Assembly: GCA_037200005.1 (NCBI GenBank)
Contig: JBBCGY010000001.1
Location: forward strand, 42,416 to 106,415
Reading direction: 5' to 3'
DNA length: 64,000 nt
DNA from: Alphaproteobacteria bacterium
Lineage (GTDB): Bacteria > Pseudomonadota > Alphaproteobacteria > UBA9219 > RFNS01
A model generated the notes under the pieces. It searched no databases. It was not told the origin of the DNA and was given only the letters and a program-made list of their open reading frames with translations. Made by a program: the position numbers and the translations under genes. Each line of letters begins with the position of its first letter. The first letter of the stretch is position 1. Of the stretch, positions 2,332-25,843 are shown piece after piece.

Positions 2332-3892
2332 ATGGCGCAAGCGAAAAAGGCAAAGAAACAGGGCGGCAATGGGGCTAATTTGGGGTTTGAAGCCCAGATG
2401 TTCCAAGCCGCCGACAAAATGCGCGGCAGCATGGATGCCAGCGAATATAAGCATGTCGCCCTGGGACTGATTTTCTTGAAATATATCTCCGACGCTTTTG
2501 AAGCCAGACATGCGACTGTCAAAGCGGACGGCGAGGACCCGGAAGACCGCGATTTTTATATCGCGGAAAATGTCTTCTGGGTTCCCAAAGAGGCCCGATG
2601 GAACCATCTACAAGCGAATGCCAAGCAACCGACCATCGGTAAATTGATTGATAATGCCATGCTGGCGATTGAGTCGGCGAATGCCTCTTTGAAGGGGGTT
2701 TTGCCAAAGGATTATGCCCGCCCAGCCCCTCAACAAACAAATGCTTGGCGAGCTGATCGACCTTATCAGCGGCATCGGGATGCATGAGGGCGCAGGCAAG
2801 AGCAAAGATATTCTTGGGCGCGTTTACGAATATTTCCTCGGTGGCTTTGCCGGAGCCGAAGGCAAGCGCGGCGGTGAATTTTATACGCCGCGTTCCGTAG
2901 TCATGCTGCTGGTTGAAATGCTGGAGCCTTATAAAGGCCGCATCTATGACCCTTGCTGCGGTTCGGGCGGCATGTTCGTTCAATCGGAGAAATTCGTGCT
3001 GGCGCATGGCGGGCGCATCGGCGACATCGCCATCTATGGCCAGGAAATGAATAACACCACATGGCGCTTGGCCAAAATGAATATGGCGGTGCGCGGCATT
3101 GACACGGATATTCGCTGGAACAATGAAGGCAGCTTCCATAAAGATGAATTCAAAGACTTGAAGGCCGATTATATCCTCGCCAATCCACCGTTCAACGTAT
3201 CGGATTGGGGAGCGGATCGCCTGCGCGAAGATGTGCGGTGGAAATACGGCTTGCCGCCTGCTGGCAATGCCAACTACGGCTGGCTACAGCATATCATCCA
3301 CCATTTAGCGCCGAATGGCGTTGCCGGCGTTGTGCTGGCCAATGGCAGCATGTCTTCCAATCAGTCCGGTGAAGGCGAAATCCGCAAGGCTATGATTGAA
3401 AAGGATTTGGTCGATTGCATGGTGGCCTTGCCAGGGCAGCTATTCTATTCAACCCAGATTCCGGCCTGCCTGTGGTTCTTGGCGCGGAACAAAAAAACAT
3501 CGCATCCGCGCAATCGCAGCGGCGAAGTCTTGTTCATTGATGCCCGGAAAATGGGTGTCATGATTGACCGCACCCGCCGTGAGTTAACGGAAGATGACGT
3601 TAAGAAGATCGGCGCTCTCTATCATGCCTGGCGCGGTGAAAAAGACGCCGGGAAATATGCCGACATTCCTGGTCTTTGCAAGGCGGCAAAGTTGGATGAA
3701 GTCTCCGGTCATGGCTTTGTCCTCACCCCTGGCCGCTATGTCGGCAGCGAAGCGGTGGAAGATGACGATGAACCGTTTGAGGTGAAATTTCCCCGACTGG
3801 TTGTTGAGTTGGAAAACCAGTTTGAAGAAAGCGATAAACTCACTGCCCAAATTCGGCGGAATCTGACTTTGTTGGGAGGGTCGCAAAAATGA
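2332..3892 (+). pseudogene. hsdM: type I restriction-modification methyltransferase subunit HsdM, frameshifted
   Basis: The HsdM N-terminal domain (ORF 2332..2787) and the methylase core (ORF 2714..3892) lie in different frames. Core motifs include [15 protein letters not shown] and NPPFN. Removing one C from the C4 run at 2726-2729 gives a continuous ...[19 protein letters not shown]... Confidence 0.85.
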
Positions 3893-4380
3893 CGCTCAAC
3901 CACAAATACATCAAACAGATATTGATTTCCTTGCGGGACAATCCAGCTCCCAGCATGGACAGTTATGATCTGGCAAAAATTTGTGGCGTTGATATGAACC
4001 ATATTGATGAATTGGCGTTTGGTAAGTTTGTGACCCAACTGCGCCTGCTAAAGGATATGGCATGCATAGACTGTCCCGTGGACAATCTCGGCTTTAGCCA
4101 GAACATCAATCGCCACTGGATAATTTGTCGCACCACCTATCGGCTCTCCAGCCAGGGGCACAGTTTTCTGGACACAGAAAACAAAAATACCCTGTTCAAT
4201 AAGGGAAAGGCGTTCTTCTTTTCAGCCTTTACGGAAGCTGGAAAGCGTTTTCTGATTCAGGCAATAACGGCAATTTTTATTGTTGTGCTGGCTACCGTTG
4301 CCGCAAACGCTGGTCTTTTCAAAATTTCGAGTTCGCATGGCCTAGCTAATCTCAAAAATCCAAAAGAGCGAGGGCTATGA
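3889..4380 (+). CDS. hypothetical protein, N-terminal wHTH-like (DUF2513-like) region plus C-terminal TM helix (163 aa)
   Basis: Its start overlaps the hsdM stop (ATGA) and its stop overlaps the hsdS start (ATGA). It has a hydrophobic segment [20 protein letters not shown]. The family call is inferred from the N-terminal pattern only. Confidence 0.55.
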
Positions 4381-5696
4381 TGTCTCTTTCGGAATGGCAA
4401 ATATTATCATTTAAAGAAGCTGGTGTTCAGTTGATTGATTGCGATCACAAAACACCCCCGGCATCTTCTTATGGGTATCCATATGTTACGATCCCTCAAA
4501 TCAAAAATGGGCGCATAGATGTGTCTGAAGCAAGGCGGATTACCGCAGAACATTTCAAAGAGTGGACAAGGAAGGCCAATCCAAAGCCCTTTGACGTTGT
4601 CTTATCTCGTAGATGCAACCCAGGAGAAACTGCCCATGTCCCTGCGGGGCTAGAGTTCGCTCTTGGACAAAATCTCGTTTTGTTGCGTGCAAATGGTGAA
4701 AAGGTATTTCCGCGATATTTACGATGGCTTACGCGGGGAGTGTTATGGTGGGAACAGATATCAAAGTTTATTAATGTGGGCGCCGTTTTCGATAGTTTGA
4801 GATGTGCGGACGTTCCAAATTTTCAATTTCCAATACCAGCACTGCATGAACAAAAAGCAATTGCTTCAATATTGACCGCACTGGACGATAAGATCGAACT
4901 GAACCGCCGGATGAATGCGAACCTGGAGGCGATGGCGCGGGCGGTGTTCAAAAGTTGGTTTGTCGATTTCGACCCCGTCCGCGCCAAAATGGCAGGCCGC
5001 CAACCCTTCGGTATGAGCGCGGCTACCGCTGCCTTGTTCCCCTCGCGCCTCGCCCCCTCCGAACTCGGCGATATTCCGGAGGGGTGGTCGGTCGATCAAA
5101 TCGGGAACGCGGTCACCGCCGTTGGCGGCAGCACCCCCAGCACCGAAAATCTAGAATATTGGACTGATGGGCAGTATGCCTGGGTAACGCCAAAAGACCT
5201 CTCTGCACTGAAATCGCCTGTTTTGTTCACAACGGAACGCAGGATAACAGATGCAGGAATCCGTGTTATCAGTTCCGGACTTCTGCCGTCGGGTACTGTT
5301 TTGATGTCTTCCCGTGCGCCAATCGGCTATATCGCAATCGCCGAAACGTCCGTTGCCATCAATCAAGGCTTCATAGCCATCGTTTGTGACAAAGAGCTTC
5401 CCAATTTATACGTCTGGCAATGGCTGCACGCCAATCTTGACATGATCAAAAGCCATGCAAACGGCTCAACCTTTCAGGAAATCAGCAAAGGCAGTTTCCG
5501 GCCTCTCCCCTGCATCATTCCATCAGCAAAGGTTCTCGAAAAATTTCAGGCAATCGTTTTGCCTATCTGGCAAAAACTCGTTGCGAATGAAAAAGAGTGT
5601 CTGGGGCTAGAAAAAACGCGCGACTACCTTCTTCCCAAACTAATCTCCGGCGACATCCGCATCCGCGACGCCGAGAAATTTATGGAGGCTGCATAA
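4377..5696 (+). CDS. hsdS: type I restriction-modification specificity subunit HsdS
   Basis: Two target-recognition halves are separated by the conserved central helix (LDDKIELNRRMNANLEAMARAVFKSWFVDFDP). The conserved C-terminal helix is LEKTRDYLLPKLISGDIRI. Confidence 0.85.
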   Translation: MMSLSEWQILSFKEAGVQLIDCDHKTPPASSYGYPYVTIPQIKNGRIDVSEARRITAEHFKEWTRKANPKPFDVVLSRRCNPGETAHVPAGLEFALGQNLVLLRANGEKVFPRYLRWLTRGVLWWEQISKFINVGAVFDSLRCADVPNFQFPIPALHEQKAIASILTALDDKIELNRRMNANLEAMARAVFKSWFVDFDPVRAKMAGRQPFGMSAATAALFPSRLAPSELGDIPEGWSVDQIGNAVTAVGGSTPSTENLEYWTDGQYAWVTPKDLSALKSPVLFTTERRITDAGIRVISSGLLPSGTVLMSSRAPIGYIAIAETSVAINQGFIAIVCDKELPNLYVWQWLHANLDMIKSHANGSTFQEISKGSFRPLPCIIPSAKVLEKFQAIVLPIWQKLVANEKECLGLEKTRDYLLPKLISGDIRIRDAEKFMEAA

Positions 5697-7150
5697 TGAA
5701 TCGCTGGGTAAATTCGTTCCAGAACCATCCTTTCCAAAAGCCATGGAAAGATATTGTGGAGCTTTCAGAAAAGATTGCTCTTCAAGATGAGACTGTCGCA
5801 ACTGACGTCCAAGAGCTTGCGCGTCTAAAAAAGGTTATAACCTATGTTGGCCAGTTAATAGGTGCAGCTGATCCGGAATTGATTCCATTAAGCATATGGA
5901 GTTCTTTTCAGGACCAGGCCACGCAGTGTGCAGATCAAATCAATCAGTACAACAGCAATAAGAACATTACTCACCTCAGCAACGCTAATAGCAATCTAGA
6001 TAATTTATTGACATATGTTCGCCCTTATGTGGTTTCTGCAGAGGGGGCGGCTCAGGCGGCAATGTCTGCGTTCATAGTGTATTCCGACACCATCAATACA
6101 CAGACCGATCTGATACAATCAAAAACCCAAGCCTCTGTTAACGGTACGCAGGCGAACAAAGAAAAGTCTGATGAAATATACAAAGAAATAGAGCAGTCAA
6201 AGCACAACATTCAACAATTGGAACAAAAATTTTTGATCGGCGATAGCAATGAGAAGAGCCTCCAGGAAAGAATGCAGATTCTTCTTGGGGAAGCCCAGGA
6301 GTGGAATAAAATAATTGGTGAGTTTCACAAACGGCTGACAAGCGGCAATGAACAAGAAAGCGCAATTTCGCTACAAATCGAAGAAGCAAAAAATAAAGCT
6401 ACTAAGGATAAGGAGGCTATAGAAAGTGCCCTTCAATTATCTGAAAATTTAATCAAAGACCTCAAAGAGTTTTATGAGCGAGTTTTTGGCAAAGAAGGCA
6501 GTGACGGAAACGTCATGGTCGGTCTAAAGCAAGAATTGGATAACCGCATTAAAGAGCTTGATAATTTTAAAATTAATCAAGGAACAGCCTACAATACCTT
6601 ATTTCAAAAAATTGAATCTCTACTGCCCGGAGCAACAAGCACTGGTCTTGCCAGTGCGTATAGAGAATTAAGAGACTCTTTTGCTGCGCCCATCAATATC
6701 TATACGCTAGTGTTTTGCTTCACCCTAGCAGTGATGTTTTTTGTTGGCTTGTGGGGTGTTGACTTCGGTGATGATGTGGGATTGAACAAGATGCTCGGCA
6801 GTCTCTATCACAAACTCCCACTTTTACTGCCCATCCTGTGGCTGGCAATTTTTGCTTCCAGACGAAGAAGCGAAAGTCAAAGGTTGCAACAAGAATATGC
6901 CCATAAAGAGGCGCTCGCAAAATCATTTCAAAGCTTCAAAAAACAAATTGATGCATTGCAGGAGAAGGACGAGGTCCTTACCAAGAAACTCCTGGATGCT
7001 ATGATCGGTGCCGTGTCCCATAATGCATCACAAACACTGGATGGAAAACATGGAGATAAAATTCCAACGCAAGAACTTCTAGAGGGAGTTATCAAGAAAT
7101 TTCCTGCGCAAAGCTTTTTTGAAAAATTAGTCGATAAAATCCTTAAATAG
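5696..7150 (+). CDS. coiled-coil protein with two C-proximal TM helices (484 aa), function unknown
   Basis: The ATG overlaps the hsdS stop (TAATG). About 340 aa are heptad-like and Q/E/K/N-rich. Then come TM segments (IYTLVFCFTLAVMFFVGLWGV; LPLLLPILWLAIFA), an RRRSESQRLQQEYAHKEALAKSF segment and a helical tail. Confidence 0.65.
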   Translation: MNRWVNSFQNHPFQKPWKDIVELSEKIALQDETVATDVQELARLKKVITYVGQLIGAADPELIPLSIWSSFQDQATQCADQINQYNSNKNITHLSNANSNLDNLLTYVRPYVVSAEGAAQAAMSAFIVYSDTINTQTDLIQSKTQASVNGTQANKEKSDEIYKEIEQSKHNIQQLEQKFLIGDSNEKSLQERMQILLGEAQEWNKIIGEFHKRLTSGNEQESAISLQIEEAKNKATKDKEAIESALQLSENLIKDLKEFYERVFGKEGSDGNVMVGLKQELDNRIKELDNFKINQGTAYNTLFQKIESLLPGATSTGLASAYRELRDSFAAPINIYTLVFCFTLAVMFFVGLWGVDFGDDVGLNKMLGSLYHKLPLLLPILWLAIFASRRRSESQRLQQEYAHKEALAKSFQSFKKQIDALQEKDEVLTKKLLDAMIGAVSHNASQTLDGKHGDKIPTQELLEGVIKKFPAQSFFEKLVDKILK

Positions 7151-7233
7151 GGAACAATGTGAATGGTCTGTTAGGGGCAAAAAACTCGTCACATCCAACT
7201 TATCAAGTACGTTCCTCGGAAAGAGCTACTCAC

Positions 7234-8319
7234 ATGACCTTTGACCGCAACACACCCTACAACGATCTTCCGCTTTTGCCACCGGCGCAGATCGACCTGG
7301 AAACAAAGCCTATTCTCAAAAAGGCGATCACGGCGAATATCGCGCTTGCCAAGCTGTTCGACGCGGGAAAGTTGATTCCCAATCAGGCGCTTCTGGTTCA
7401 GGCGATTGGGTTGCAGGAAGCCAAGCTGTCCAGTGAAATCGAGAATATCGTCACGACCAATGACGATCTTTACCGCGCTTTCGCGGATGAGGGCGTGCAT
7501 TCCAGCCCCGCAGCCAAAGAGGTTCTGTTTTACAAGGACGCGCTCTGGAAAGGCTATAACGCGATCAAACTGGAAAAGCGCCCGCTCTCCACGCGCCTTT
7601 TTGAAGATACGTTCCGCATTATCAAGCAATCCTCTGACGGCATCCGGCGTTTGCCGGGCACGAAATTATCGAACCCGGCAGGCGAGATTATCTACACGCC
7701 GCCCGAAGGCGAAAATCTTTTGCGTGACAAGCTCTCCAATCTCGAAAAATTTCTTTACGCCGAAGACGGGCTTGATCCTTTGATCAAAATGGCCGTCATG
7801 CACTATCAATTCGAGGCTATTCATCCCTTCACCGACGGCAATGGGCGCACGGGGCGCATTCTCAATCTTTTATATTTGATCGAGTGCGGGTTGCTGGAGA
7901 TTCCGGTTTTGTATCTATCCCGCTACATCATCGAACACAAAACGGATTATTATCTGGGACTGCGCGGCGTAACCGAGGGGCAAAATTGGGAATCGTGGAT
8001 TCTCTATATTCTCGATGCGATTGAAGTGACGGCGCAGATGACCAGAGATCGGATTCTTCGCATTCATTCTTTAATGGACAAGACGGCGGAGGCGGTCAAA
8101 GCCCAGGCTCCCAAAATCTATTCCAAAGACCTTATTGAGGTGATTTTCCGCCAACCCTACTGTAAAATTCGCTTTTTGGAGGAGGCAGGGATTGCCCAAA
8201 GGCAGACCGCCTCCACTTATCTCTCCAAATTAGAGGCTTTGGGTATTTTGGAGTCCGTAAAGGCTGGACGCGAGAAATATTATATTAATCCGGCATTCTT
8301 TAACCTTTTGGCAGAATGA
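7234..8319 (+). CDS. Fic family protein (AMPylase-type), class with N-terminal inhibitory helix
   Basis: Fic motif HPFTDGNGRTGR is present. SSEIEN fits the inhibitory [ST]xxxE[GN] motif. The N-terminus PYNDLPLLPP is typical of the Fic_N domain, and the tail is wHTH-like. An alternative GTG start exists at 7159. Confidence 0.85.
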   Translation: MTFDRNTPYNDLPLLPPAQIDLETKPILKKAITANIALAKLFDAGKLIPNQALLVQAIGLQEAKLSSEIENIVTTNDDLYRAFADEGVHSSPAAKEVLFYKDALWKGYNAIKLEKRPLSTRLFEDTFRIIKQSSDGIRRLPGTKLSNPAGEIIYTPPEGENLLRDKLSNLEKFLYAEDGLDPLIKMAVMHYQFEAIHPFTDGNGRTGRILNLLYLIECGLLEIPVLYLSRYIIEHKTDYYLGLRGVTEGQNWESWILYILDAIEVTAQMTRDRILRIHSLMDKTAEAVKAQAPKIYSKDLIEVIFRQPYCKIRFLEEAGIAQRQTASTYLSKLEALGILESVKAGREKYYINPAFFNLLAE

Positions 8320-8503: not shown

Positions 8504-11500
8504 ATGGTCGCTGACATTCAATACACCCAGCCGGAACCGAATTATGACGGATTCCGCGAAGCGCATGTTGAAGAAGCAACTTTCGATTGGCTCTCTGGGC
8601 TTGGCTGGACACTCGCGCATGGGCCGGATTTGGCACCGGAAGGCAAAGCCCCGGAGCGGGCCAGTTATGGCGACGTGCTGTTGTTGGGGCGGTTGAGGAC
8701 AGCCTTGGCCGCGATCAACCCGCAACTCCCCGCCGATGCGATTGACGACGTGGTGCGTAAGATTATCGCAGTCGAAATGCCGTCTTTGGTCGAAGAAAAC
8801 CGGCGCTTGCATAAACTGATGGTCGATGGCGTGGCTGTGCAATACATGCAGGCCGACGGCACGATCAAAAACGACATCGCGTGGCTGATCGACTGGGAAA
8901 ACAAAAAGAACGATTGGCTGGCCGTCAATCAATTCACGGTCATCGAAGAACGCAACAATCGCCGCCCCGACGTGGTGATGTTTATCAACGGTTTGCCCCT
9001 TGCCGTTATTGAATTGAAGAACGCGGGAGACGAAAACGCGACAATCGAAGGCGCGTTCCGCCAGACGCAAGCTTACAAGCAATTGATCCCTTCTCTGTTT
9101 CGCACGAACGGCATACTGATTATTTCCGACGGACTGAAAGCCCGCATCGGCAGCCTGACCGCAGATTATGAGCGTTTCATGCCATGGCGCACGGTGGATG
9201 GGGCCGGTGTCGCGGCCAAAGGAACGCCCGAATTACACACAATGATTCACGGCGTTTTTGAGCAAGGGCGTTTTCTGGAGTTATTGCGCCGGTTCACCGT
9301 GTTTCAAAGCAACGGCAAAGATATTTTCAAAATCGTAGCAGGATATCACCAGTTCCACGCCGTAAAGCTCGCCGTTGCCAGCACCATCGACGCAACGGCC
9401 AGTGAAGGAAATCGCAAAGTCGGCGTCATCTGGCATACGCAAGGATCGGGCAAAAGCCTGTTGATGGCATTTTATGCGGGCAGCGTGATTGCCAATCCTG
9501 CGATGGCCAATCCGACTCTGGTTGTGCTGACCGACCGGAATGATCTGGACGACCAGCTTTTTTAACACTTTCAGCCTATCTCGTGATCTTATCCGCCAGA
9601 CGCCCGCGCAAGCGGGAGATCGCGATGAATTGCGGAAGCTTCTGGCGGTATCATCTGGCGGCGTTATCTTTACGACCATTCAAAAATTTCTGCCCGCTGA
9701 TAGTGAAAAAACTTTCCCGCTGTTGACTGACCGCAAGAATGTCATCGTCATCGCCGATGAAGCGCACCGCAGCCAATATGGCTTCAAGGCCAAGTTGGAT
9801 AAAAAGTCGGGCGAATTAGCTTATGGTTTTGCGAAACACCTGCGCGATGCGCTGCCGAATGCGTCCTTCATTGGCTTTACAGGAACGCCTATTGAGAAAG
9901 CAGATGTCAATACGCCCGCCGTATTCGGCGATTATATTGATGTCTATGATATTCAACGCGCGGTCGAAGACGGCGCGACGGTGCCAATCTATTACGAAAG
10001 CCGCCTAGCCAAACTCCAGCTTGACGAAGAGGAAGTCAAAAATCTTGATGCTGAGGTCGAAGAACTGACCGAAGACGAAGAATCCAGCGAGCGCGAGCGT
10101 AAGAAAAGCAAATGGTCGCGCGTTGAAGCCCTGTGGGAGCCGAAACACGCTTGGCTCAAGTAGCCGCCGATATTGTTCAGCATTTTGAGAACCGTATCAG
10201 CGCCTTAGACGGCAAAGGCATGACCGTATGCATGAGTCGCCGTATTTGCGTGGCGCTCTATAACGAGATTATTAAATTACGGCCCGCATGGCATTCAGAC
10301 GATGACGCGCAAGGCGCTATCAAGATTGTGATGACGGGCAATATCGCCAACGATCCGCCTGAATGGTTGAAACATACGGGCAGCAAGGCGCGCCGTGATT
10401 TCCTGGCAAAGCGGGCGCGCGACGCTAAAGACCCGCTAAAACTTGTTATCGTTCGTGATATGTGGCTTACGGGCTTTGATGCGCCCTGCATGCACACGAT
10501 GTATGTCGATAAGCCGATGCATGGTCATGGCTTGATGCAGGCCATTGCCCGTGTAAATCGCGTATTCCGCGACAAGCCAGGCGGCTTGATCGTTGATTAT
10601 ATCGGGATTGCCCATAATCTGAAACAAGCTCTCTCTATTTATTCCCCCGGCGACCGCGAAGAAGTCGGCATTGACGAGCAGCAAGCCGTCGCAGAGATGA
10701 TGCGCCGCTATGAAATCGTCCGGGATATGTTTTATGGATTCGATTATATGCGCGCGCTGCACGGCACACCGGCTGAACGCTTAGTGCTGATGGCCGAGGC
10801 TCTGGAGTGGATTCTCGATTTGCAGCAACGTGAAGCTGCAAAAGAACAGACCGAACAAGCCAGGAAAGAGGTGCGCCGCAAATTCTCAGACGCCGTTGTT
10901 GGCTTATCGCGCGCCTATGCGCTGGCCGCAACCTCGCCAGAAGCGGGGAAAATTCGTGATGAAGTCGGTTTCTTCCAGGCTATTCGTGCAGCCCTGGCAA
11001 AAAATGAGCCGGGCAAAGGTAGCACACAGGCGGAAATCGATGTGGCCGTCCAACAAATGGTCAGTCGTGCCGTGGTGTCAACGGAGATTGTCGATATTCT
11101 GGCGGCGGCAGGCATTAGAACCCCGGATATATCCATCCTCTCAGATGAATTTCTGGCAGAAATTCAAGGCATGAAGAAGCGTAACCTTGCATTGGAAGCC
11201 TTACAGAAACTCATCAATGGAGAAATAAAATCCCGCATCAAATCGAACGTGGTGCAATCTAAGAAATTCAGCGAACGACTGGAAGCCGCCGTCCGGCGCT
11301 ATCATAACAACGCTATAACTGCCGCGCAGCTTTTGGAGGAGCTGATTGCCATCGCAAAGGATATTAAAGCTGACCGCGAACGAGGAGAAGAACAAGGACT
11401 TAGCGAAGAGGAAATCGCTTTTTATGATGCTCTGGCTGAAAATGAAAGCGCATTGCAGTTGTTGGGCGATGAGAAATTACGAGTGATTGCTACTGAACTG

Positions 11501-11680
11501 GTTGTCTCCGTTCGCAATAATGTGTCTGTTGACTGGATGCACCGCGATAGCGCCCGCGCCAAGTTGCGCATCGAAGTCAAAAAGATTCTCAAGAAATATG
11601 GCTATCCGCCAGATTTACAGGATGCAGCGGTGCAACTGGTGTTGCAGCAGGCCGAAGTTTTGGCCCCACTCTGGGCATAA
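8504..11680 (+). pseudogene. hsdR: type I restriction endonuclease subunit HsdR, two frameshifts
   Basis: Three consecutive ORFs (8504..9565, 9540..10163, 10133..11680) each carry bona fide HsdR sequence (DEAH box DEAHRSQYG, helicase C, C-terminal domain). An extra T in the T6 run at 9558-9563 gives DQLF*. A missing G near 10131-10136 makes expected ...[13 protein letters not shown] read EALWEPKH. Confidence 0.85.
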
Positions 11681-11772: not shown

Positions 11773-12903
11773 TCAAAGCGCCAGCCGGGGCCGGATTAGC
11801 GACAAAGGCCGGGCAGTGGAAAGCTGGAGGCCAACAGCTTCGTTTGGAACATTGGAAAAATCGGTAATAAGCGGCAGCATGGCGTTAGGGCCAAGGGCGC
11901 GTGGTGAGGCACCTAGTTCTTTAAGAGCGGAAACAATTTCCGGTTCATTTAGCGCATGAATGCGCATAAGGGGTTGCGTAGTGTCAGGAATCCATTTCCT
12001 GCGCGAGACTTCATCGCGGCCCGTCGAGATAAGTGCCGCGACCACGTCCTTGAGTTTGTCGCCTTTCGGCAGATTGCCGTTGCTGGTGATTTGAGCGCGG
12101 ACAATCGGCTCGCCCAGGAAGGTCGAAATGGCTTCCGTAAAACTGGCGGCGATTTTCTGATTGCCGTCCTCACTTTGCCAATTCGCCAGGAACACATTTG
12201 GCAAGCTGGAGTCTTTGCCGGGTTTCGCGGCGAAGTCCGCGAGCTGGATTGCAACTCGTGAGCGGCCCGTTTCAATGGGCGCATCGCCGATAAATTCCAG
12301 AACGGCGCTATCGTCCGGCGCTCCCATCGTCGCACCGAGTTTCTTGAAGATGCCGGTCATGGCCGCATTGCCGCCCGCATATTCGCCGACGCGGCCGCGC
12401 GAGACGAGGCCATAGGGCGAATAGCCTTGTTCGCGGCTGACGGATCGCCGGATTTTCTCGTAGATAAAATGCGAGCCAAGTCCAATGCCATTCGGGTATT
12501 CCGCGCTTTTTGTGCGATTACGGAATTCCTGGGATAGTTCCGGCGACACATAGGTATCTTCGCCATAGATAGCAGGATAATGGCGGAAATCCCGGCCATT
12601 GCGTTCCGTGAGAACGGTCGGAAACTCGATTGAGCCACCGGCGAGTTTGGGGCTGCAATTTTCCCACTCCACGATGGCGAAATAAGCCTGAATTTTATTT
12701 TTCTTGATGGCCTCGATAACTTTGCCGAATTTGGCGTTATCAGCGGACGCTCCATGCGTCACGGCTTCACTTTCGACGATTCTATAAAGAATCTCATCAA
12801 GCGCCATATGATGAACGACGTCCGTACCGTTCATGCGCACGATGCTGGCTTTGGCGTTTCCCGGCAGCAGACCGGGCATATTATCGAGCGCAACGGAAGA
12901 CAT
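11773..12903 (-). CDS. protein of unrecognised family (376 aa), paralog of 24000..25298
   Basis: Intact ORF with SD AAGGGGA. Its start lies 2 nt after the XRE gene stop. Long blocks are shared with the 432-aa paralog (HYPAIYGEDT, YPNG[IL]GLG, IAASFT..IST..G.PIVR.Q.TSNGNLP, MRIHAL..PEIV.ALK.LGA.PR.LGP). Confidence 0.7.
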   Translation of the reverse strand: MSSVALDNMPGLLPGNAKASIVRMNGTDVVHHMALDEILYRIVESEAVTHGASADNAKFGKVIEAIKKNKIQAYFAIVEWENCSPKLAGGSIEFPTVLTERNGRDFRHYPAIYGEDTYVSPELSQEFRNRTKSAEYPNGIGLGSHFIYEKIRRSVSREQGYSPYGLVSRGRVGEYAGGNAAMTGIFKKLGATMGAPDDSAVLEFIGDAPIETGRSRVAIQLADFAAKPGKDSSLPNVFLANWQSEDGNQKIAASFTEAISTFLGEPIVRAQITSNGNLPKGDKLKDVVAALISTGRDEVSRRKWIPDTTQPLMRIHALNEPEIVSALKELGASPRALGPNAMLPLITDFSNVPNEAVGLQLSTARPLSLIRPRLAL

Positions 12904-12905
12904 GA

Positions 12906-13556
12906 TTATATTTTCCCCTTGTCGTCGGGGATCGAAGCATTTTCCCAGAATGATTCAAATTGCTCGACATATCTTTCGGCCAAGGGCTTGGAGTGTATCG
13001 AAACGACTTCGACATTATGATCGCTGCGATGCACCGCCTGGGCGATATAGTCATTATAGACGTAATAGGGAATGAGGATTTTCGTCGTCTTATCCAGCCA
13101 GCGATATTCGCAATAGCTGGCGGAGAAATTATAGTCGCCATCCAGGATAAGAACGCGGGCGTCAAGATTCGGAAGCTTGCTCATTCTTTCCATATGCTCG
13201 GTCGCATAATCTTGCGCATAGGAAAGGGTCTTGCCGTCGCTGGAATTAAACTGGCGAATGCGTCCACCGTCTTTCAGCGTTTCGTATATATGATCGAGGA
13301 ATTGTCGGTATCCGGCTTTGCCCGAAAAAACCCTGACTTGGTTTCTCCGCATCCGAACGCCCTCGTCATCCAGGAATTCGACGCCGTGCCGGTCGAAAGC
13401 ATTGGTTATGCTGGCGATGGTCTTCTCATGCGGTTGTACCGTATCGGCCTCGATTTTGCTCACGGTCACGCGGGTAAGCCCGGCCTCCCTAGCCAAGTCT
13501 TCCGCTTTCCATTCCAGTAAGCTGCGCGCTGCGCGAATTTGACGCCCGGTAATCAT
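12906..13556 (-). CDS. XRE-family HTH regulator with uncharacterised C-terminal domain (216 aa)
   Basis: N-terminal HTH: GRQIRAARSLLEWKAEDLAREAGLTRVTVSKIE. It is the first gene of a two-gene minus-strand unit. Confidence 0.75.
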   Translation of the reverse strand: MITGRQIRAARSLLEWKAEDLAREAGLTRVTVSKIEADTVQPHEKTIASITNAFDRHGVEFLDDEGVRMRRNQVRVFSGKAGYRQFLDHIYETLKDGGRIRQFNSSDGKTLSYAQDYATEHMERMSKLPNLDARVLILDGDYNFSASYCEYRWLDKTTKILIPYYVYNDYIAQAVHRSDHNVEVVSIHSKPLAERYVEQFESFWENASIPDDKGKI

Positions 13557-14820: not shown

Positions 14821-17800
14821 ATGGTGGCACCTGCGAAGAAATTTCACGAAGCGAACGGCGAACTCACCAATGAGGCAGGGGCAACGCGACCGCCGCTCTC
14901 GAGGAACAGCCTCTGGCGGACACTGCGCCCCGGGATCTCGGTGGGAGTAAGCCTCGCGGCAGTCGTCGCTTGCGAAAGCGGCGAACCCAACGCTTCAAAT
15001 GACAACATCGTTTCGATTTCCCAAGCGATAGGCTCTGCGACAATCTATAGCTTGCCTACCAATGTTTTGATGCCCAATGCCATCAATAATCAAAATCTCA
15101 TTGTGGGCCAGGGTCTGCCTTCGATCTATGATGCCAACACGGGAACATTTAGTAGCCTTGAAGTAAACCAGCCTTCGGGGGCGGTCACTTCCTATGCAAT
15201 TAGCAATGCCGGTCACGTTGTCGGCAATTCATTCAATGTTGGGCCGGTTTCCAATTCGGCGTTCATTTCACAGGGCGGACATTTGTCCGATCTATACGCC
15301 GGCAACAACAACGGGGTGACCAGCGTCGCTTACGGCGTCAACAATTATGGCCAAGTCGTCGGCACGATGCCGGTGACGGTCAACGATGCGAACAATAGTC
15401 CACATCCTTTCACGCATGCGTTCTCGTGGCAGGGCAGCGTTACAGACCTTACACCGAACTACTATGGAAATTCAGCCGCCTATGGCATCAACGATGCTGG
15501 GCAGATCGTGGGAACGATAGGAACTGCGGGGGTCAAGTGGCAGGGCGGATCGTCAAGCACGCTGCCGAGCGGCACCAGCACGCCCGCCATGATCAACAAT
15601 GTCGGTCAGATCGTCGGGACATATAGTTCAGGCGGTTCGTCGCACGCTTTCCTTGTGCAGAGCGGCACCCTGACCGATCTCGGAGCCATACAGGGAAGCA
15701 CACCTGTGAGGATCAACAACAAAGGACAAGTTACGGGCGGCTTCTACAACACGGGTGCCGGACAATATTACCCGAGCGTCTGGCAGAATGGCGTCGTGGT
15801 TACGATTCCCACTCTGTCGGGCATTCCCGCAGGCTGGTCTATCACGTCGATAAACGGCATCAATGACAGCGGAACCGTCGTAGGGCAAGGCACGCTTTCG
15901 GGTTCTTCACGGGGTTTTTACCTAACTTCGCCGCAGCTTCTGAACTACGCCATTGCCGGAAAGCCCTACGATCCGAAAGCGAATGGTGGTGAGGATTCGG
16001 CGTCAACCCCGACAGACGATCTATGTGGAACTCATGGCATGTGTGTGCCCAACGCGCAATTGCTGTCGGCCAGCTTGAATTTGAACGATACGCCGATTGG
16101 GTATCAGCCGCCCAAAGGGCCACCAGCCTATATCCGGCTTACATATAATCATCGTGACAGTGTCGCGCCCAGCAGCACTTCCTCGCATGTTGGGCCAAAC
16201 TGGACTCTGAATGTCATTTCTTACATTCAGGATGATCCGGCCAGCCCGGGCCAGAGCGTCACGCGCAACGTGGCGGGCGGCGGTATCGTCGACTACACTT
16301 TTGAGGCAGGGCAGTTCAATACCACCACGGGTGCATTCGGGCCGGAGAAGCAAACCGGGGCGATCTTGAAACGGACTCCCGCGACAGGGTTCAGCGCCAG
16401 TGCTTCCTATGAGCTTTCCTTTCCCGATGGGGCCAAGCAAATATTCTCCTACCCGGATGGAAGCTTCAATTATCCGCGCCGCGCATTCCTGACGGATATC
16501 GTTGATGCCTCAGGCCAGGGCCTGCATTTTGGCTACAATTATCTTCAAGGAACTTTCGGCGCGATCAATTGCACGCCGGGATGTCCGCAACTGCAATCAG
16601 TTTCTGATGCTAATTTCCGTGCAACAAACTTCGTCTACGGTGACGCATCTAATGTCTTGCGCGTGACGCGGATTAATGACCCGTTCGGGCGTCACGCCGA
16701 TTTAGCTTATGATGGCAGCGGACGGCTTTCGTCAATCACGGATGTGATCGGCATTCAATCGTCTTTCACCTATGACACCACCGACCCTACTTTCATCAAA
16801 AAGCTAACGACACCCTATGGCGATAGCAATTTCGTCTTTGGGCAAGATACGGCGACGGATCGTCGTTGGCTCACACTCTCCGATGCCGTGGGCAATACGG
16901 AAAAAGTGGAATACCGGGGCAGCAGCGCCAGCGGCATAGCGGCGTGCGACAAAAACACGAGCGATGCGTCGTGCAGTGTCTCGACCTCCGTGCCGACAGG
17001 CATGCCTAACGGCATCAATAACGCCGATCTCGACAAGCGCAACACCTTTGTCTGGAACAAATGGATGTATGCGAATGGCTATGGCAGCGATTACACGCAG
17101 GCGAATGTTACCCATTGGCTCAAGGACGGTGCGGGCAATCCCGTGGGGATTCCGGAAAGCGTCAAGCCGCTGTACGAATCCCGCATTTGGTATAATTATC
17201 CCGGCCAGAACGATCCTAGCACCCCAGGAACCCTGTCTGTGCCGAGGGCGACGGGCCGCGTGATCACCGATCCGCTTTACGGGCAAGCGCCGCAGAATCA
17301 GGTTTACCAAAGTCAATATAACAGCCTCGGCAAGCCCACCTTGACCGTCGATCCCTACAAGGTTTCAGGCAACAACAATGAAGGCCGAACTACACGCATG
17401 ACCTATGATGCCTCCGGCGTCGATCTTTTGACGGTGGAACAGAAAACCGGCAGCGGAACGCCGGGGACATGGGCGACGATTGCTTCCTACGTCTATACCG
17501 ATCCGACAGAACAGCCCACATCGATCCACAAACCGATCCGCTATACCGACGCGGCGGGGCAAACTTATAAATTCAAATACAATGGCGACGGCCAATTGAT
17601 CTATGCCGCCAATCCCTACAACGATACGACGTATAATGAATATCATCCGTCCGGCAAGCTCCTGCGGACGACCATGCCTGTGCCGAGCGTAAACTGGAAT
17701 ACCATCGATTATGGAACCGATATTAACGGCGCGCCGACGGGGGCGAGCAACAGCAGCGCCCTAAGGGACACCGCCATTACCTACGACTCCGCCGATCGTC

Positions 17801-20202
17801 CGTATGACGTGACCGACCGGATGGGTCTGGTGAAGCGTTTCGGCTACGACAATCTCGACCGGGTAACGCGGGTGGATTACGCCCCCGGCACGGCGGGCAC
17901 GACCTATGAGACGAACACCTATACCAACCTCGACCTGACATCGCACCGCGACCGGCTTGGCCGGGTTAGCACCGATGTTTACACGGCGAACCGGCAGCTG
18001 TGGCTGAGCTTCAATGCTTCGGGAACGCGGCGGGGCTTCACCTATTACCCGAACGGCGCGCTACAAGGCTACTACGACGAGAACGACCATCCTACAATCT
18101 ACGGCATCGACGGCCAGGGACGCGCCAACGCCGTCGTCTATCCCAATGGCAACCAGACGAATTACTACTACGATGATGGCGGGCGGATGCGCACCATTGT
18201 CGATCTCGACGGCTCGAACCAGCGCTGGCGGAACATTAAATATAACGTCGATAATAGCGTCCATATCCGCGACTATACCAACCCGGCAAATCCGTCCGAT
18301 CCCGTGGTTCTGGCGACGACAACCGCGACCTTCACCTACGATCCATGGTTCCCCGGACAAATGACTTCAATGGCCGATGCCAGCGGAACGACCAACTATA
18401 CATACAAAACCGTAGGCACCGTCGGCGCCTTACAACTCGCGACCGAAAATCCGCCGACGGTAAGCGGCGACGCGGATAAAATCACCTACACCTATGACCA
18501 GAAGGGACGGCTCGCCTCGCGCCAGATCGGTATCGGCACGGCGAGCGTGCTGCCGCAGGAAAGCTGGGTGCGCGACACCTATGGCCGCATTAACAGGCAC
18601 ATCATTCCCGACGGCAACCTGTTCTATTACGACTTCAACGGCGCGAGCAATCAGGTGACAATGCGCGCGTTTCGCAATCAGGCGCTGACGGAGATCGACC
18701 CGCTGAATACGCGCACGATGATGAGCTACGACACGGCGGCGAACGACTCGCGGCTGCTGACGATCAACAACCCGCCCTACGACAACAGCGCGCCCGGCGC
18801 GCGGGACTTCACCCTCAATTGGGGATCGTCGCCCGCCAATCCGTACGTTCCGGCGACGATCACCGACTCCGCTGGAGGCCCCGGCGGGGCGTGGGGACAG
18901 CGGGTGTGGACGATGGGCTATGACGCGCGCGACCGGCTGACCTCGGCGGTCGCCGCCGACCGCAGCTATTCGTTTACCCTGGACGCGCCGGGCAACGCGA
19001 CGAGCTTCACCAGCACGCACTATCCGAGCGGCGGGCTGTATAGCTTTAACTCGACCTACAACACGTCGAACCAGATGACGGTGGCGAACGGCAACGCGCT
19101 GATCTACGACCCCTACGGCAACCTCGTCACCCACACGAACTACCGCAGCTTCAAGTACGACGCCGAGAACCGCCTGATCGAGGTCGACTTCCCCGCCGCG
19201 CCCGCCGACAAGGTTGAGATGCAATATGACGGTCTTGGTCGCCGCACGCAGATCAAATCCACCATCGGCGGCGTCGTCACGACGCGGAACCTGCAATGGT
19301 GCGCCCAGACGACCTCGCCGCCGTTCCAGGGCGCGGCGGAAGAGATATGCGTCGAGCGCGACGCATCGGGCGGCATGCAGCGCATGGTCTATCCCGAGGG
19401 CGAATATCGCGCCAACGGCGGCCGGTACTTTTATGAACGCGACCAGACCGGCAACATCCGCGACGTGATGAAGATGGCGGCGGGATTGACGACCGCCGCG
19501 CGCGATAGCTCCTTCAACTACACGCCTTATGGCGGCGTCGACGGCAAAGACGGCACTGCCGAGCCGCTGCAGCAGTTCGCGGGACTGCTGTATGAGAAGA
19601 ACAGCAACCTGTTCCTCTCCCGCACCCGCGCCTATGCCCCATGGATCGGCAGATGGCTCCAGCGCGATCCGATTGGGCAGAATGGGGGGAGTAATGTTTA
19701 TGAGTATGCGGGGGCGAGTCCGATTAACAAGATTGATCCGAGCGGGTTGCAGGGGGTGCGACCTGGGTTAATAGAAACGATGCGACCTACAATAGGAGTG
19801 CCACCAGCAGCGGGGATCAACGAGGGGGCAGGAAATTACGCCGATTATCTTCAAGAAAATGGAGAAATGATGGGTGATCTAGCCACCCTTTATAGGGCCA
19901 CTAGCGCGGCGGTTGCCGGTGCGAGCAACCAATCAATGCGAGAGGATATTGAAAAAGCAAAAGTATGCACATCGTTTGGAAACAGCATGTCGGCGGATCA
20001 GCCGTTATGGTGCGGGCCTGGCGGATGCGCGGATAGCGTCAGGCAGCAGTGGCTGGATGCGACCGGCGGCTTAGTGTATCCACAAATCATCGAGTCTTTC
20101 AAAAAGAGGTTTGAACCGGCTCCCTCGCGGCTTGTGTCGACGCCGATGCGTGGCAATGACTTCGGTAATTCGGTTTTATTCCCTAATGTGGGCCCAGGTT
20201 AG
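14821..20202 (+). CDS. Rhs/YD-repeat polymorphic toxin with N-terminal HAF-type repeats and unrecognised C-terminal tip (1793 aa)
   Basis: Lipobox-like signal (SLAAVVAC). HAF-type repeats (HAFSW..., YGINDAGQIVGT, HAFLVQSGTLTDLG). Many YD repeats (YDGSGRL, YDASGVDL, YDNLDRV, YDQKGRL, YDAENRL, YDGLGRR). The core ends RWLQRDPIGQNGGSNVYEYAGASPINKIDPSGL and is followed by a 150-aa tip. Confidence 0.9.
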   Translation: MVAPAKKFHEANGELTNEAGATRPPLSRNSLWRTLRPGISVGVSLAAVVACESGEPNASNDNIVSISQAIGSATIYSLPTNVLMPNAINNQNLIVGQGLPSIYDANTGTFSSLEVNQPSGAVTSYAISNAGHVVGNSFNVGPVSNSAFISQGGHLSDLYAGNNNGVTSVAYGVNNYGQVVGTMPVTVNDANNSPHPFTHAFSWQGSVTDLTPNYYGNSAAYGINDAGQIVGTIGTAGVKWQGGSSSTLPSGTSTPAMINNVGQIVGTYSSGGSSHAFLVQSGTLTDLGAIQGSTPVRINNKGQVTGGFYNTGAGQYYPSVWQNGVVVTIPTLSGIPAGWSITSINGINDSGTVVGQGTLSGSSRGFYLTSPQLLNYAIAGKPYDPKANGGEDSASTPTDDLCGTHGMCVPNAQLLSASLNLNDTPIGYQPPKGPPAYIRLTYNHRDSVAPSSTSSHVGPNWTLNVISYIQDDPASPGQSVTRNVAGGGIVDYTFEAGQFNTTTGAFGPEKQTGAILKRTPATGFSASASYELSFPDGAKQIFSYPDGSFNYPRRAFLTDIVDASGQGLHFGYNYLQGTFGAINCTPGCPQLQSVSDANFRATNFVYGDASNVLRVTRINDPFGRHADLAYDGSGRLSSITDVIGIQSSFTYDTTDPTFIKKLTTPYGDSNFVFGQDTATDRRWLTLSDAVGNTEKVEYRGSSASGIAACDKNTSDASCSVSTSVPTGMPNGINNADLDKRNTFVWNKWMYANGYGSDYTQANVTHWLKDGAGNPVGIPESVKPLYESRIWYNYPGQNDPSTPGTLSVPRATGRVITDPLYGQAPQNQVYQSQYNSLGKPTLTVDPYKVSGNNNEGRTTRMTYDASGVDLLTVEQKTGSGTPGTWATIASYVYTDPTEQPTSIHKPIRYTDAAGQTYKFKYNGDGQLIYAANPYNDTTYNEYHPSGKLLRTTMPVPSVNWNTIDYGTDINGAPTGASNSSALRDTAITYDSADRPYDVTDRMGLVKRFGYDNLDRVTRVDYAPGTAGTTYETNTYTNLDLTSHRDRLGRVSTDVYTANRQLWLSFNASGTRRGFTYYPNGALQGYYDENDHPTIYGIDGQGRANAVVYPNGNQTNYYYDDGGRMRTIVDLDGSNQRWRNIKYNVDNSVHIRDYTNPANPSDPVVLATTTATFTYDPWFPGQMTSMADASGTTNYTYKTVGTVGALQLATENPPTVSGDADKITYTYDQKGRLASRQIGIGTASVLPQESWVRDTYGRINRHIIPDGNLFYYDFNGASNQVTMRAFRNQALTEIDPLNTRTMMSYDTAANDSRLLTINNPPYDNSAPGARDFTLNWGSSPANPYVPATITDSAGGPGGAWGQRVWTMGYDARDRLTSAVAADRSYSFTLDAPGNATSFTSTHYPSGGLYSFNSTYNTSNQMTVANGNALIYDPYGNLVTHTNYRSFKYDAENRLIEVDFPAAPADKVEMQYDGLGRRTQIKSTIGGVVTTRNLQWCAQTTSPPFQGAAEEICVERDASGGMQRMVYPEGEYRANGGRYFYERDQTGNIRDVMKMAAGLTTAARDSSFNYTPYGGVDGKDGTAEPLQQFAGLLYEKNSNLFLSRTRAYAPWIGRWLQRDPIGQNGGSNVYEYAGASPINKIDPSGLQGVRPGLIETMRPTIGVPPAAGINEGAGNYADYLQENGEMMGDLATLYRATSAAVAGASNQSMREDIEKAKVCTSFGNSMSADQPLWCGPGGCADSVRQQWLDATGGLVYPQIIESFKKRFEPAPSRLVSTPMRGNDFGNSVLFPNVGPG
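18991..19746 (+). repeat. direct repeat copy 1 (Rhs core 3' end)
   Basis: Near-identical to 21502..22257 at a constant offset of 2511 bp. There are 3 aa differences over about 250 codons. Confidence 0.9.
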
Positions 20203-20206
20203 TCCT

Positions 20207-21478
20207 ATGAAAAAGTTTACTCTATTGCTTGTCGCGCTTTGTAGTCTGACAATGTTACCGGCTCATGCCGCTGACCAAGACTCCAAACCACCCGTCATTG
20301 ATATTCCTGCCACGCGAAAAGAGGCGGAGTCTGGAGATGCTCGGGCTCAATATAATCTGGGCATAGCTTATCTCAACGGTTACGGGGTGAAGAAAAATAA
20401 AGATGAAGCTATTGAATGGATTTACAAAGCAGGGAAGAACAATGATGCCCTCGCAATATATTTCTTGGGCAGCGCATATCATGATGGCGACCTTTTGCCA
20501 CAAGACTACGCCAAGGCTATGAAGTGGTATCACAGGTCCGATGAATTATACGGCAGTCCCCTTGCGCAGAATATGCTTGGCGTGATGCACGAAAACGGTC
20601 AGGGGGCTCCACAGAATTATGAAGAAGCGGCTAGGTGGTATCGCAAAGCTGCCGAGAATATTTACGCACCGGCTCAATCCCATCTTGGATTCCTATACTA
20701 CGCTGGACGCGGCGTTCCTAAGGACGATCAAAAGGCTCTATATTGGCTTAAGAAAGCAGCCATACAAAACGATGCGCCAGCAAAGCTTATGCTAGGCATT
20801 ATGCACTATAAAGGCGAAGGAGTGGAAAAGAATTACGTTAAAGCTGTCAGCTATTTTCGCGAAGCCGCAGACGTCGGAATATCGATAGCTGAACGATATT
20901 TGGGAAATATGTATTACCACGGCGAAGGCGTTTCCAAGGATGAAGCCCAGGCTGTGTCTTGGTGGCGCAAAGCCGCCGAACAAGGGGATAGGGAGTCGGA
21001 AAAGATCATAGGTGGTATGTACTATTATGGCACAGGAGTGTCGAAGGATTTTTCCCAAGCCGTTTTATGGTGGCAAAAAGCTGCGGAAAAGGGTGATGTC
21101 GATGCTCAATGCAACTTGGCGAAAGCTTACTATCATGGAGAAGGTATAGGAAAAGATGAAACTCAAGCTGTGTTATGGTGGCGGAGGGCCGCGGCACAAG
21201 GACATGGAGAATCCCTCCTTTATTTAGGACAAGCGTATTTTAGTAGCATAGGCGTATCGCAAGATGATGTGCAGGCTTATATATGGCTAAGCTTGGCGGC
21301 TACAAGAAATCAGTCGTCAGCGGTTGCAACACTCACGGAACTCGAAAAGTCCATGACGCCGGAACAAATCGCTGAAGCCAGAAAACGCGTGGCAGAATGG
21401 AAACCCAAGCCTGAGCCAAAGCCTGCCCCAATAGGGCCAATACCCGAAATTCTAAAAGAAGTCCGTGAAGATTTATGA
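20207..21478 (+). CDS. secreted Sel1-like repeat protein (423 aa), candidate cognate immunity/partner of the Rhs tip
   Basis: Signal peptide MKKFTLLLVALCSLTMLPAHA. About 10 Sel1 repeats (AQYNLGIAYLNGYGVKKNKDEAIEWIYKA...). The start lies 5 nt after the Rhs stop. Confidence 0.8.
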   Translation: MKKFTLLLVALCSLTMLPAHAADQDSKPPVIDIPATRKEAESGDARAQYNLGIAYLNGYGVKKNKDEAIEWIYKAGKNNDALAIYFLGSAYHDGDLLPQDYAKAMKWYHRSDELYGSPLAQNMLGVMHENGQGAPQNYEEAARWYRKAAENIYAPAQSHLGFLYYAGRGVPKDDQKALYWLKKAAIQNDAPAKLMLGIMHYKGEGVEKNYVKAVSYFREAADVGISIAERYLGNMYYHGEGVSKDEAQAVSWWRKAAEQGDRESEKIIGGMYYYGTGVSKDFSQAVLWWQKAAEKGDVDAQCNLAKAYYHGEGIGKDETQAVLWWRRAAAQGHGESLLYLGQAYFSSIGVSQDDVQAYIWLSLAATRNQSSAVATLTELEKSMTPEQIAEARKRVAEWKPKPEPKPAPIGPIPEILKEVREDL

Positions 21479-22668: not shown

Positions 22669-22700
22669 AGAATATGAGTGGAATTGAGGGAGTTAATGCA

Positions 22701-25584: not shown

Positions 25585-25776
25585 ATGAGCCAGGAAGCAT
25601 ATCGCGTGAAAGAATTCTGCAACCGCTACGCCATTTCAAAAGCCAGCTTCTACCGGGAAACAGCGGCGAAGCGGCTGCATATCCTAAAACGTGGCCGTAC
25701 AACGCTCGTTGCCCGCACCGAAGCCGAACGCTGGTTTGAAAGCCTTGGCCAAGGCCAGCCGCAGCAATCAGCCTGA
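25585..25776 (+). CDS. excisionase/AlpA-like small HTH DNA-binding protein (63 aa)
   Basis: SD AGGGAGGA. The pattern YRVKEFCNRYAISKASFYR...RWF resembles MerR-superfamily excisionases. It lies immediately upstream of the integrase. Confidence 0.65.
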   Translation: MSQEAYRVKEFCNRYAISKASFYRETAAKRLHILKRGRTTLVARTEAERWFESLGQGQPQQSA

Positions 25777-25843
25777 TCGCATTCAATATCCCGAATATTT
25801 CCAAAGCCATTTTTCGTCAATCTTATTCTCATGGAGGCATGTC

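Follow-up and report, generated by a model that had tools for sequence, protein, structure and literature searches.

A membrane protein gene recurrently embedded in type I restriction-modification operons: a candidate single-gene defence family

The stretch of DNA analysed here (the window) comprises 64,000 nucleotides of contig JBBCGY010000001.1 from an Alphaproteobacteria bacterium, and it carries near its start a type I restriction-modification (R-M) operon in the order hsdM, a small open reading frame (ORF), hsdS, a gene that we call X, a SoFic-type Fic gene, and hsdR. Gene X is the subject of this report and is probably a defence-related accessory gene, the link to defence being drawn from its genomic context. 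It occupies positions 5696-7150 of the forward strand as a stop-free frame, and ORF reading and translation bear out the 484-residue protein that the original prediction, made from the letters of the sequence, had placed there. An in-frame GTG at 5597 gives a longer alternative ORF; the ATG at 5696 is taken as the start because all homologues in the family alignment begin with M-S/N-R-W at this point. This ATG and the stop codon of hsdS share bases in TAATG (5694-5698), and a search for a promoter or terminator inside the operon yields no signal above shuffled expectation. Within the region, the kilobase of lowest GC content is that of X (0.418 compared with about 0.50-0.55 nearby). The gene and the regions of its product are listed below, where conservation is the mean over 70 diverse family members, TM denotes a transmembrane segment, and pLDDT is the predicted local distance difference test score of the AlphaFold2 model.

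5684-5688, forward strand: Shine-Dalgarno sequence GGAGG, 7 nucleotides 5' of the X start, by direct reading of the sequence
5696-7150, forward strand: gene X, encoding an all-helical membrane protein, from ORF, translation, family alignment, and AlphaFold2 model
5696-6070, forward strand: N-terminal head, residues 1-125, a compact helical bundle with pLDDT >90 and conservation 0.50
6071-6595, forward strand: stalk, residues 126-300, long antiparallel helices with conservation 0.37, the most variable part except the C-terminal tail
6596-6691, forward strand: hinge and pre-TM segment with ESLLPGATSAGLASAY, residues 301-332, conservation 0.72
6692-6757, forward strand: TM1, approximately residues 333-354, Kyte-Doolittle 19-residue maximum 2.24, conservation 0.42
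6758-6808, forward strand: predicted periplasmic loop, approximately residues 355-371, short, net acidic, and of low conservation
6809-6856, forward strand: TM2, approximately residues 372-387, 15-residue hydropathy maximum 2.22, conservation 0.62
6857-6955, forward strand: post-TM2 helix, residues 388-420, S(K/R)RRSExxRLQQEYAHKEALAKS(Y/F), conservation 0.81
7022-7066, forward strand: second cytoplasmic motif NASxTLDGKHGDKxP, residues 443-457, conservation 0.71

The AlphaFold2 model of X, based on a 52-sequence alignment and having a mean pLDDT of 78, is entirely helical, and consists of a head bundle, three long antiparallel helices (residues 115-181, 189-264, and 277-352, the last continuing into TM1), a short loop, a helix of residues 363-420 that extends from TM2 into the cytoplasm, and shorter helices. 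The C-terminal module modelled alone gives the same picture, with a pLDDT of 77. Both hydrophobic segments of the original prediction, which were said to be joined by a short loop, are found here as TM1 and TM2, and its basic stretch (RRRSESQRLQQEYAHKEALAKSF) and helical tail are likewise present, the tail having 97 residues. The long coiled coil that it assigned to residues 1-340 stands only in part: heptads are strong in the stalk (41% Q/E/N/K, heptad z=9.6, rising to z=11.4 for residues 189-264), whereas residues 1-125 form a compact, conserved head (27% Q/E/N/K, z=1.7) in which W4, R43, K46, D59, A97, N98, D102, and P110 are invariant in A1. The general layout, a cytoplasmic helical rod and head on a minimal two-TM hairpin, is supported, and the head is proposed to be a trigger-recognition or partner-binding module.

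Taken alone, the hairpin of X is modestly unusual, with 2.4% of composition-preserving shuffles matching its hydropathy maximum; its position is conserved across the 70 diverse homologues and in the sister branch described below. The mean flanking charges among the 70 members are +0.5 before TM1, -0.6 in the loop (median length 17 residues, conservation 0.37), and +1.7 after TM2, and because of this pattern the topology is predicted to be N-in/C-in, with both termini cytoplasmic and, according to the model, the hairpin anchoring a helical stalk of ∼10 nm that bears the head. Conservation peaks at the cytoplasmic face of the membrane, namely in the hinge, the proline-kinked TM2, the post-TM2 helix, and the NASxTLDGKHGDK motif. 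The hinge has the consensus LPGATSAGLA, its segment aligns with SSDAGLAGGF in the sister branch, and its pLDDT falls below 50 at residues 309-315, suggesting flexibility there in the modelled structure. F340 in TM1 is invariant in A1 and Y341 nearly so, and TM2, which keeps P375, P379, and W382, is more conserved than either TM1 or the stalk. The post-TM2 helix, which is common to the sister branch, is the most conserved element and the signature of the superfamily; R390, R391, R396, E400, Y401, H403, K404, and E405 in this helix are invariant in A1, as are N443, S445, D449, H452, and P457 of the second motif, and the C-terminal tail has the lowest regional conservation (0.26). This distribution indicates that selection is strongest on the membrane-proximal cytoplasmic collar and on TM2, a pattern that would not be expected of a passive membrane anchor.

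Comparison of X with Pfam 2025, NCBIfam of June 2026, and PADLOC-DB v2.0.0 (5,027 models) gives no family match, Pfam and PADLOC having been read at E<=0.01, and PHROGs gives weak matches to families of unknown function. Assignment to a named family was accordingly rejected, as the sequence libraries returned only coiled-coil noise (TrlF, SMC) and these weak PHROGs. A Pfam search with 10 divergent members likewise gives noise only, PDB sequence searches, whether queried with X alone or with the profile of the family, find coiled coils only, all on the stalk region 93-279, and no description of the family was found in the literature by keyword and motif. The statement that X belongs to no named family therefore holds across Pfam, NCBIfam, PADLOC, and the PDB, and no housekeeping family is matched. 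Membership of SLATT, among the families against which the original prediction proposed a search, is not supported, with no Pfam match for X at E<=0.01 and no SLATT in the 10 divergent members at E<=1. A reading as a HEPN RNase, prompted by the invariant R396-x6-H403, was also rejected: HEPN RNases carry Rx4-6H within a four-helix HEPN fold, the R being followed in most cases by a polar residue, whereas in X a Leu follows the R, the motif lies on a helix continuous with TM2, and no HEPN fold is matched.

The family itself is large. A protein on record that is identical to X is a hypothetical protein of an Alphaproteobacteria metagenome-assembled genome (MAG). A word-indexed search yields 1,210 clusters at 90% identity, all of about 485 residues and nearly all labelled 'hypothetical protein' (one is a 'coiled-coil domain-containing protein'), and an exhaustive profile search of 1.84 billion representatives yields 547 clusters (50% identity) at E<=1e-30 and 2,320 at E<=1e-10. 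The best 150 profile matches are near-uniformly about 470-500 residues long and match end to end with no extra domain or fusion, as expected of a stand-alone unit; the shorter entries among them match part of the profile and look like fragments. A pattern-limited search of 185,579 species genomes gives 107 confirmed relatives, and relatives are scattered among Alpha-, Beta-, Gamma-, and Epsilonproteobacteria, Verrucomicrobia, and Leptospira. A sister branch of unannotated proteins of ∼400 residues occurs in Campylobacter, Aliarcobacter, and Acinetobacter, and is homologous over X residues 158-460 (hhalign 99.9%, E=2e-31). It shares with X the distal stalk, FYxxIFG...GLKxEL, the hinge, the TM hairpin, and (Q/E)EYAHKE(A/S)LAKS(Y/F), but has a shorter, unrelated N-terminal region and lacks both the RRR cluster after TM2 and the KHGDK motif. 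X thus belongs to a large superfamily of inner-membrane proteins without previous annotation. Plasmid carriage is confined to this distant branch (3 Campylobacter plasmids), which is carried by MOBP/MPF_T conjugative plasmids; on Campylobacter jejuni plasmid p50_1_20 its gene (4425-5618 of that locus) is flanked by the trb transfer genes and the RepL replication region.

The remaining genes of the R-M operon in the window, among which X lies, are the following.

2332-3892, forward strand: hsdM, split in two ORFs (2332-2787 and 2714-3892), with Pfam N6_Mtase (3e-108) and PADLOC MTase_I, and TIGR00497 for the N-terminal fragment
3889-4380, forward strand: small ORF of 163 residues between hsdM and hsdS, with stop/start overlaps on both sides
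4377-5696, forward strand: hsdS, directly 5' of X and translationally coupled to it, with Pfam Methylase_S and PADLOC Specificity_I (1.9e-119)
7159-8319, forward strand: SoFic-type Fic protein, 8 nucleotides 3' of X, with PADLOC SoFic (2.7e-115)
8504-11680, forward strand: hsdR, split in three ORFs (8504-9565, 9540-10163, and 10133-11680), with Pfam HSDR_N, SWI2_SNF2, and T1RH-like_C, and PADLOC REase_I

The placement of X between hsdS and hsdR recurs elsewhere. In a comparative set of 80 loci from one-genome-per-species collections, the order hsdM-hsdS-X-hsdR is found in 12, with HsdM 54-86% identical to that of the window, and X lies downstream of a divergent HsdM in three more. In a second set of 11 metagenomic contigs, independently sampled, picked mainly for long sequence, and carrying precomputed Pfam labels, four have X embedded in type I R-M, so that X is inside such a system in 15-36% of sampled loci; the corresponding rough estimate for a random gene is well below 0.1%. 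On the neighbour-joining tree embedded and solitary copies are interleaved, the embedded ones occupying at least six separate branches, and the hsdS-X junctions in eight other embedded loci range from -14 to +14 nucleotides. Defence genes make up the majority of the genes embedded in type I R-M, BREX, DISARM, or Hma systems, the classic occupant of the hsdS-hsdR position being PrrC (Payne et al. 2024). By this 'guilt-by-embedding' logic X, which is recurrently embedded and, having no transposase, integrase, or metabolic family match, counts as neither a mobilome nor a housekeeping gene, is a strong defence candidate.

Unrelated genes (SoFic, Abi_C, DUF3644, RhuM) fill the hsdS-hsdR slot elsewhere, so that it acts as a site for cargo. 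Among the four R-M contigs, one places X on a P4-like element together with RhuM and DUF3644 as co-cargo, another has Abi_C beside X and AbiEi downstream on a relaxase-bearing element, a third has a BrxR-headed operon on a TniQ element, and in the fourth X is without other cargo. In the window the slot holds two unrelated cargo genes, as SoFic, a known family of single-gene defence, follows X after 8 nucleotides; this Fic gene scores 484 bits against NCBIfam ProtAdlyltaseSoFic, under the 550-bit cutoff. The original prediction had proposed co-variation of X with its Fic neighbour, which fails: SoFic adjoins X in the window only, and two other loci have a distant Fic 4-7 kb away. A two-gene module of X and SoFic was rejected because Fic is not adjacent to X in any other locus examined, including the locus of a 65%-identical relative (L001), which has hsdS-X-hsdR without Fic. 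SoFic is therefore independent cargo rather than a partner conserved with X. A second cargo site may exist at the hsdM-hsdS junction, whose occupant in the window has a phrog_585 match (4e-9, unknown function) and a weak, below-cutoff DUF2513 match (E=1e-3), and other embedded loci also have ORFs of 130-188 residues in this position, none homologous to it.

When the five flanking genes to either side of X were clustered for 78 loci, none recurred besides hsdM, hsdR, and hsdS, and a conserved partner gene was rejected on this basis. X diverges faster than its host operon (mean identity 39% for X and 56% for HsdM), and strict co-inheritance with R-M was rejected because the correlation of X and HsdM divergence is weak (Spearman 0.27). 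In the window hsdM is interrupted once, around 2725-2735, and hsdR twice; of the two hsdR frameshifts, one falls within six consecutive T residues (9558-9563), and the other, which is near 10140-10160, is away from any homopolymer. The genes hsdS, X, and SoFic are intact despite these interruptions. Two R-M loci of Pseudidiomarina MAGs EA23-05 and EA13-11 have X called as 364 residues (L022, 7227-8321, and L079, 7230-8324), separated from the upstream gene by ∼560 nucleotides with an opposite-strand ORF between, and look like degraded embedded copies; the genome of the latter also carries a full-length solitary copy of X (L011).

Outside R-M operons, the three genes nearest to X on either side include a type I-C CRISPR-Cas system, AriA (three times), AbiLi (twice), mad3 (three times), a defence-type reverse transcriptase, PD-Lambda-5, and several PDC candidates, and integrases, transposases, TIR, Cas4, WYL, KAP-NTPase, and DUF4268 genes are also found as neighbours. 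Among the 11 metagenomic contigs, X abuts DISARM-like drmA/B/C, bracketed by serine recombinases, in one; is flanked by a Dam-type methyltransferase gene and a type III-like R-M in a second; is carried on integrase elements with ArdA, with Sel1, or with HipAB and an AbiEi-like gene in three; is solitary with three small ORFs of unknown function just past the 3' end of glmS in one (L102, 7127-8602), a position that is a classic attTn7-type insertion hotspot; and is at the contig edge and uninformative in one. In two loci (L093, 5960-11890, and L094, 3730-9660) X is flanked on both sides by DUF2924 and a large serine recombinase directly downstream of drmA/B/C, an arrangement that resembles a cassette bounded by recombinases. 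X is present on seven IMG/VR contigs, and in one of them (L082) the order is phrog_91 nickase, a 162-residue ORF, X, phrog_68 portal, and large terminase, a P2-like arrangement seen in a single instance. The P2 gpA-gpQ interval is the old/tin defence hotspot (Rousset et al. 2022), and by that description X lies in it in this contig. The association with defence loci for which the original prediction had looked is thus present, in the form of R-M embedding on at least six branches, the P2 hotspot, DISARM-like genes, CRISPR-Cas, PARIS, and Abi neighbours.

Beyond the R-M operon, the window contains two features that bear on the origin of the segment.

25691-27031, forward strand: tyrosine integrase (Pfam Phage_integrase)
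27112-27187, forward strand: tRNA-Lys(UUU), immediately after the integrase (ARAGORN)

Because the integrase and tRNA-Lys stand at its end, the segment is read as a tRNA-integrated island carrying R-M, X, Fic, and Rhs genes; they are the probable attachment edge, the other boundary lying at or beyond the window start. Directly after hsdR, at 11773-13556 on the reverse strand, a 216-residue helix-turn-helix (HTH) XRE protein is encoded upstream of a 376-residue protein without family match, and in the locus of a 68%-identical X relative (L089) the strand opposite to X encodes an HTH homologue (33% identity) ∼2 kb downstream. The pair may be a regulator and effector or toxin-antitoxin-like, travelling in the same islands. 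At 14821-23489 the forward strand encodes, one after another, a 1,793-residue protein with Rhs repeats, a protein with Sel1 repeats, a further Rhs fragment, and a further Sel1 protein, which form a polymorphic-toxin cassette with likely immunity or orphan modules; a Sel1 gene also occurs near X in another locus (L096).

We interpret X as a self-contained, single-gene defence against phages or mobile elements that acts through the membrane, a reading whose probability, with the mechanism included, we place a little short of even. An accessory character is favoured by the patchy phylogeny, the lack of any conserved neighbour other than hsd genes, the low GC content within the island, and the faster divergence than HsdM. 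That sensor and effector are combined in one polypeptide is suggested by the stand-alone architecture, the absence of a conserved partner, and a core common to branches with differing heads, and a membrane abortive-infection mechanism is favoured because these features fit a polypeptide that both senses, through the head, and acts, through the membrane core. X would be produced constitutively in small amounts, its translation in the window being coupled to that of hsdS, and would be inert in the membrane until the head, the module that differs between superfamily branches, recognises an infection cue. The resulting change might travel via stalk and hinge to the hairpin and the 'EYAHKE' collar, which would rearrange or oligomerise and depolarise or permeabilise the inner membrane, so that the infected cell would stop growing or die before phage release (abortive infection). 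Within type I R-M operons X could then serve as a second line of defence beside restriction, in the slot of PrrC. Sensing by the head, signalling through the hinge, oligomerisation, and membrane damage are each what we infer from architecture and conservation, and the more specific claim that X is an infection-triggered membrane-depolarising or permeabilising effector of abortive infection is, of the mechanisms considered, the one that we hold most likely, although its probability falls below an even chance. Whether X and its relatives (at least 547 clusters and the sister branch) constitute a new superfamily of one-polypeptide immune sensor-effectors, with a swappable head and a gated pore or depolariser, and forming a membrane counterpart of PrrC that backs up failed restriction, is more doubtful still.

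Several observations weigh against this interpretation. In some 80% of loci no type I R-M system lies within 10 kb of X, which is mostly solitary there; the PADLOC neighbour output was aggregated, so that the number of loci having at least one defence neighbour is a lower-bound impression. X is found among ordinary genes in some loci, beside glmS/glmU in L102 and beside smpB in L100. Four Psychrobacter loci (L055, L056, L067, and L076) have a common downstream neighbour of the nitronate-monooxygenase family (∼347 residues), and the three of them with upstream sequence have a similar upstream gene layout; because of the shared neighbour, X in Psychrobacter looks vertically inherited, unlike the mobile contexts elsewhere. 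The family has no match in 50,697 GenBank phage records, and X has no homology to a validated defence protein in PADLOC-DB v2.0.0. Fold searches with X return only generic helical bundles and hairpins, none of them specific, and pore formation is therefore purely a matter of inference. The breaks in hsdM and hsdR may be sequencing indels in a MAG or may indicate a decaying R-M system that has been outlived by its cargo.

The Psychrobacter loci and the few housekeeping-like contexts are what could be expected if X were instead a non-defence accessory protein of membrane stress, remodelling, or signalling that hitch-hikes in variable regions, and its layout does recall atlastin/mitofusin-type remodellers and PspA-like proteins. 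We regard this as unlikely in view of the patchy distribution across phyla, the repeated capture by R-M operons, the P2 and DISARM-adjacent hotspots, and the faster divergence of X than of HsdM, and also since X contains neither a GTPase nor any other enzymatic domain. Were X to play no part in defence, one would still have to explain why R-M operons capture it repeatedly.

Alternatively, X might act without killing the cell, as a membrane barrier that excludes superinfection or entry by blocking DNA translocation, or that interferes with phage holin function or assembly. Such a role would suit a protein of the inner membrane whose gene is found in a P2-like hotspot and on integrative or conjugative elements, and whose sister branch lies beside trb genes on Campylobacter conjugative plasmids. 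Nearly all of the mass and the conserved surfaces of X are cytoplasmic, however, the loop is short and poorly conserved, unlike known Sie or Imm proteins, and no relative appears among the GenBank phage records, which makes the barrier a decidedly unlikely explanation.

The position of X, exactly in the PrrC slot between hsdS and hsdR, raises the further possibility that it guards type I restriction by the logic of PrrC or PARIS, staying inactive as long as the R-M complex functions, firing when an anti-restriction protein of the Ocr, ArdA, or Stp type disables R-M, and killing via the membrane. Translational coupling of X to hsdS in at least eight loci, the concentration of most embeddings in one HsdM subfamily (the 54-86% identity noted above), and the presence of PARIS genes (AriA) and ArdA in some neighbourhoods are compatible with a guard. 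The predominance of members away from type I R-M counts against it, as does the conservation of the head in embedded and non-embedded copies alike, and the weak co-divergence with HsdM argues against a tight physical partnership; we consider the guard improbable. An accessory or scaffold subunit of type I R-M, serving as a membrane tether or restriction-alleviation regulator with no defence activity of its own, would account for co-transcription and translational coupling with hsdS and for the recurrent embedding, but is very improbable given that most copies are solitary, that the slot elsewhere holds unrelated cargo, and that canonical type I R-M is not known to require such an extra subunit.

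If the preferred interpretation of X as a membrane-acting defence gene is correct, a widespread single-gene defence family, with hundreds of clusters in Proteobacteria and beyond and no name in annotation resources, would be added to those known, and X would be a compact model of a cytoplasmic sensing domain gating a minimal two-helix membrane effector, in which the natural 'head-swap' between branches could be used to map trigger specificity. Among known systems, PrrC and RloC offer the closest parallel in position and logic: X has the slot of PrrC and is co-transcribed there, it is often found away from R-M as RloC is, and a suicide back-up beside restriction would be common to all. In contrast to these proteins X has neither an ABC-ATPase head nor a HEPN-like nuclease domain, and its model is all-helical and has two TM segments; where their target is tRNA, X is proposed to act on the membrane, and in most genomes it does not depend on R-M. 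The paradigm of a suicide module within type I R-M would, if our reading is right, be extended from RNA to the membrane.

The two-TM effectors (SLATT, the 2TM effectors of CBASS, Pycsar, and retrons, RexB, and Cam1/Csx28) resemble X in having a minimal TM hairpin with an adjacent conserved cytoplasmic helix, in their occurrence in defence islands, and in the presumed outcome of depolarisation or permeabilisation. X differs in having no sequence match to SLATT or to PADLOC effectors and in lacking a conserved link to a nucleotide-signalling or sensor enzyme (SMODS, SLOG, TIR, reverse transcriptase, and the like) or to a partner gene, with no fusions in the best 150 matches. It also bears its own cytoplasmic head and stalk of ∼330 residues, and for this reason sensor and effector appear to be one polypeptide. 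Four-helix-bundle executioners (CC domains of plant CC-NLRs, HeLo/HET-S, MLKL) and alpha-helical pore formers show a generic likeness to X, at 2-12% identity, with designed bundles scoring equally and the query range not given; the head is unlikely to be the effector because it is the non-conserved module of the superfamily, and the resemblance is a lead and not a relationship. With the HEC and PDC candidates of Payne et al. (2024) X shares the operational property of embedding, but it lies outside the 145 PDCs and the HECs of PADLOC-DB v2.0.0, as no model of that database matches it; if X is indeed a defence gene, this would support guilt-by-embedding as a route of discovery past published candidate lists. 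What is new in X is the protein family and its one-polypeptide design of head, stalk, hairpin, and collar, and what is familiar is the theme of a membrane effector nested in defence loci.

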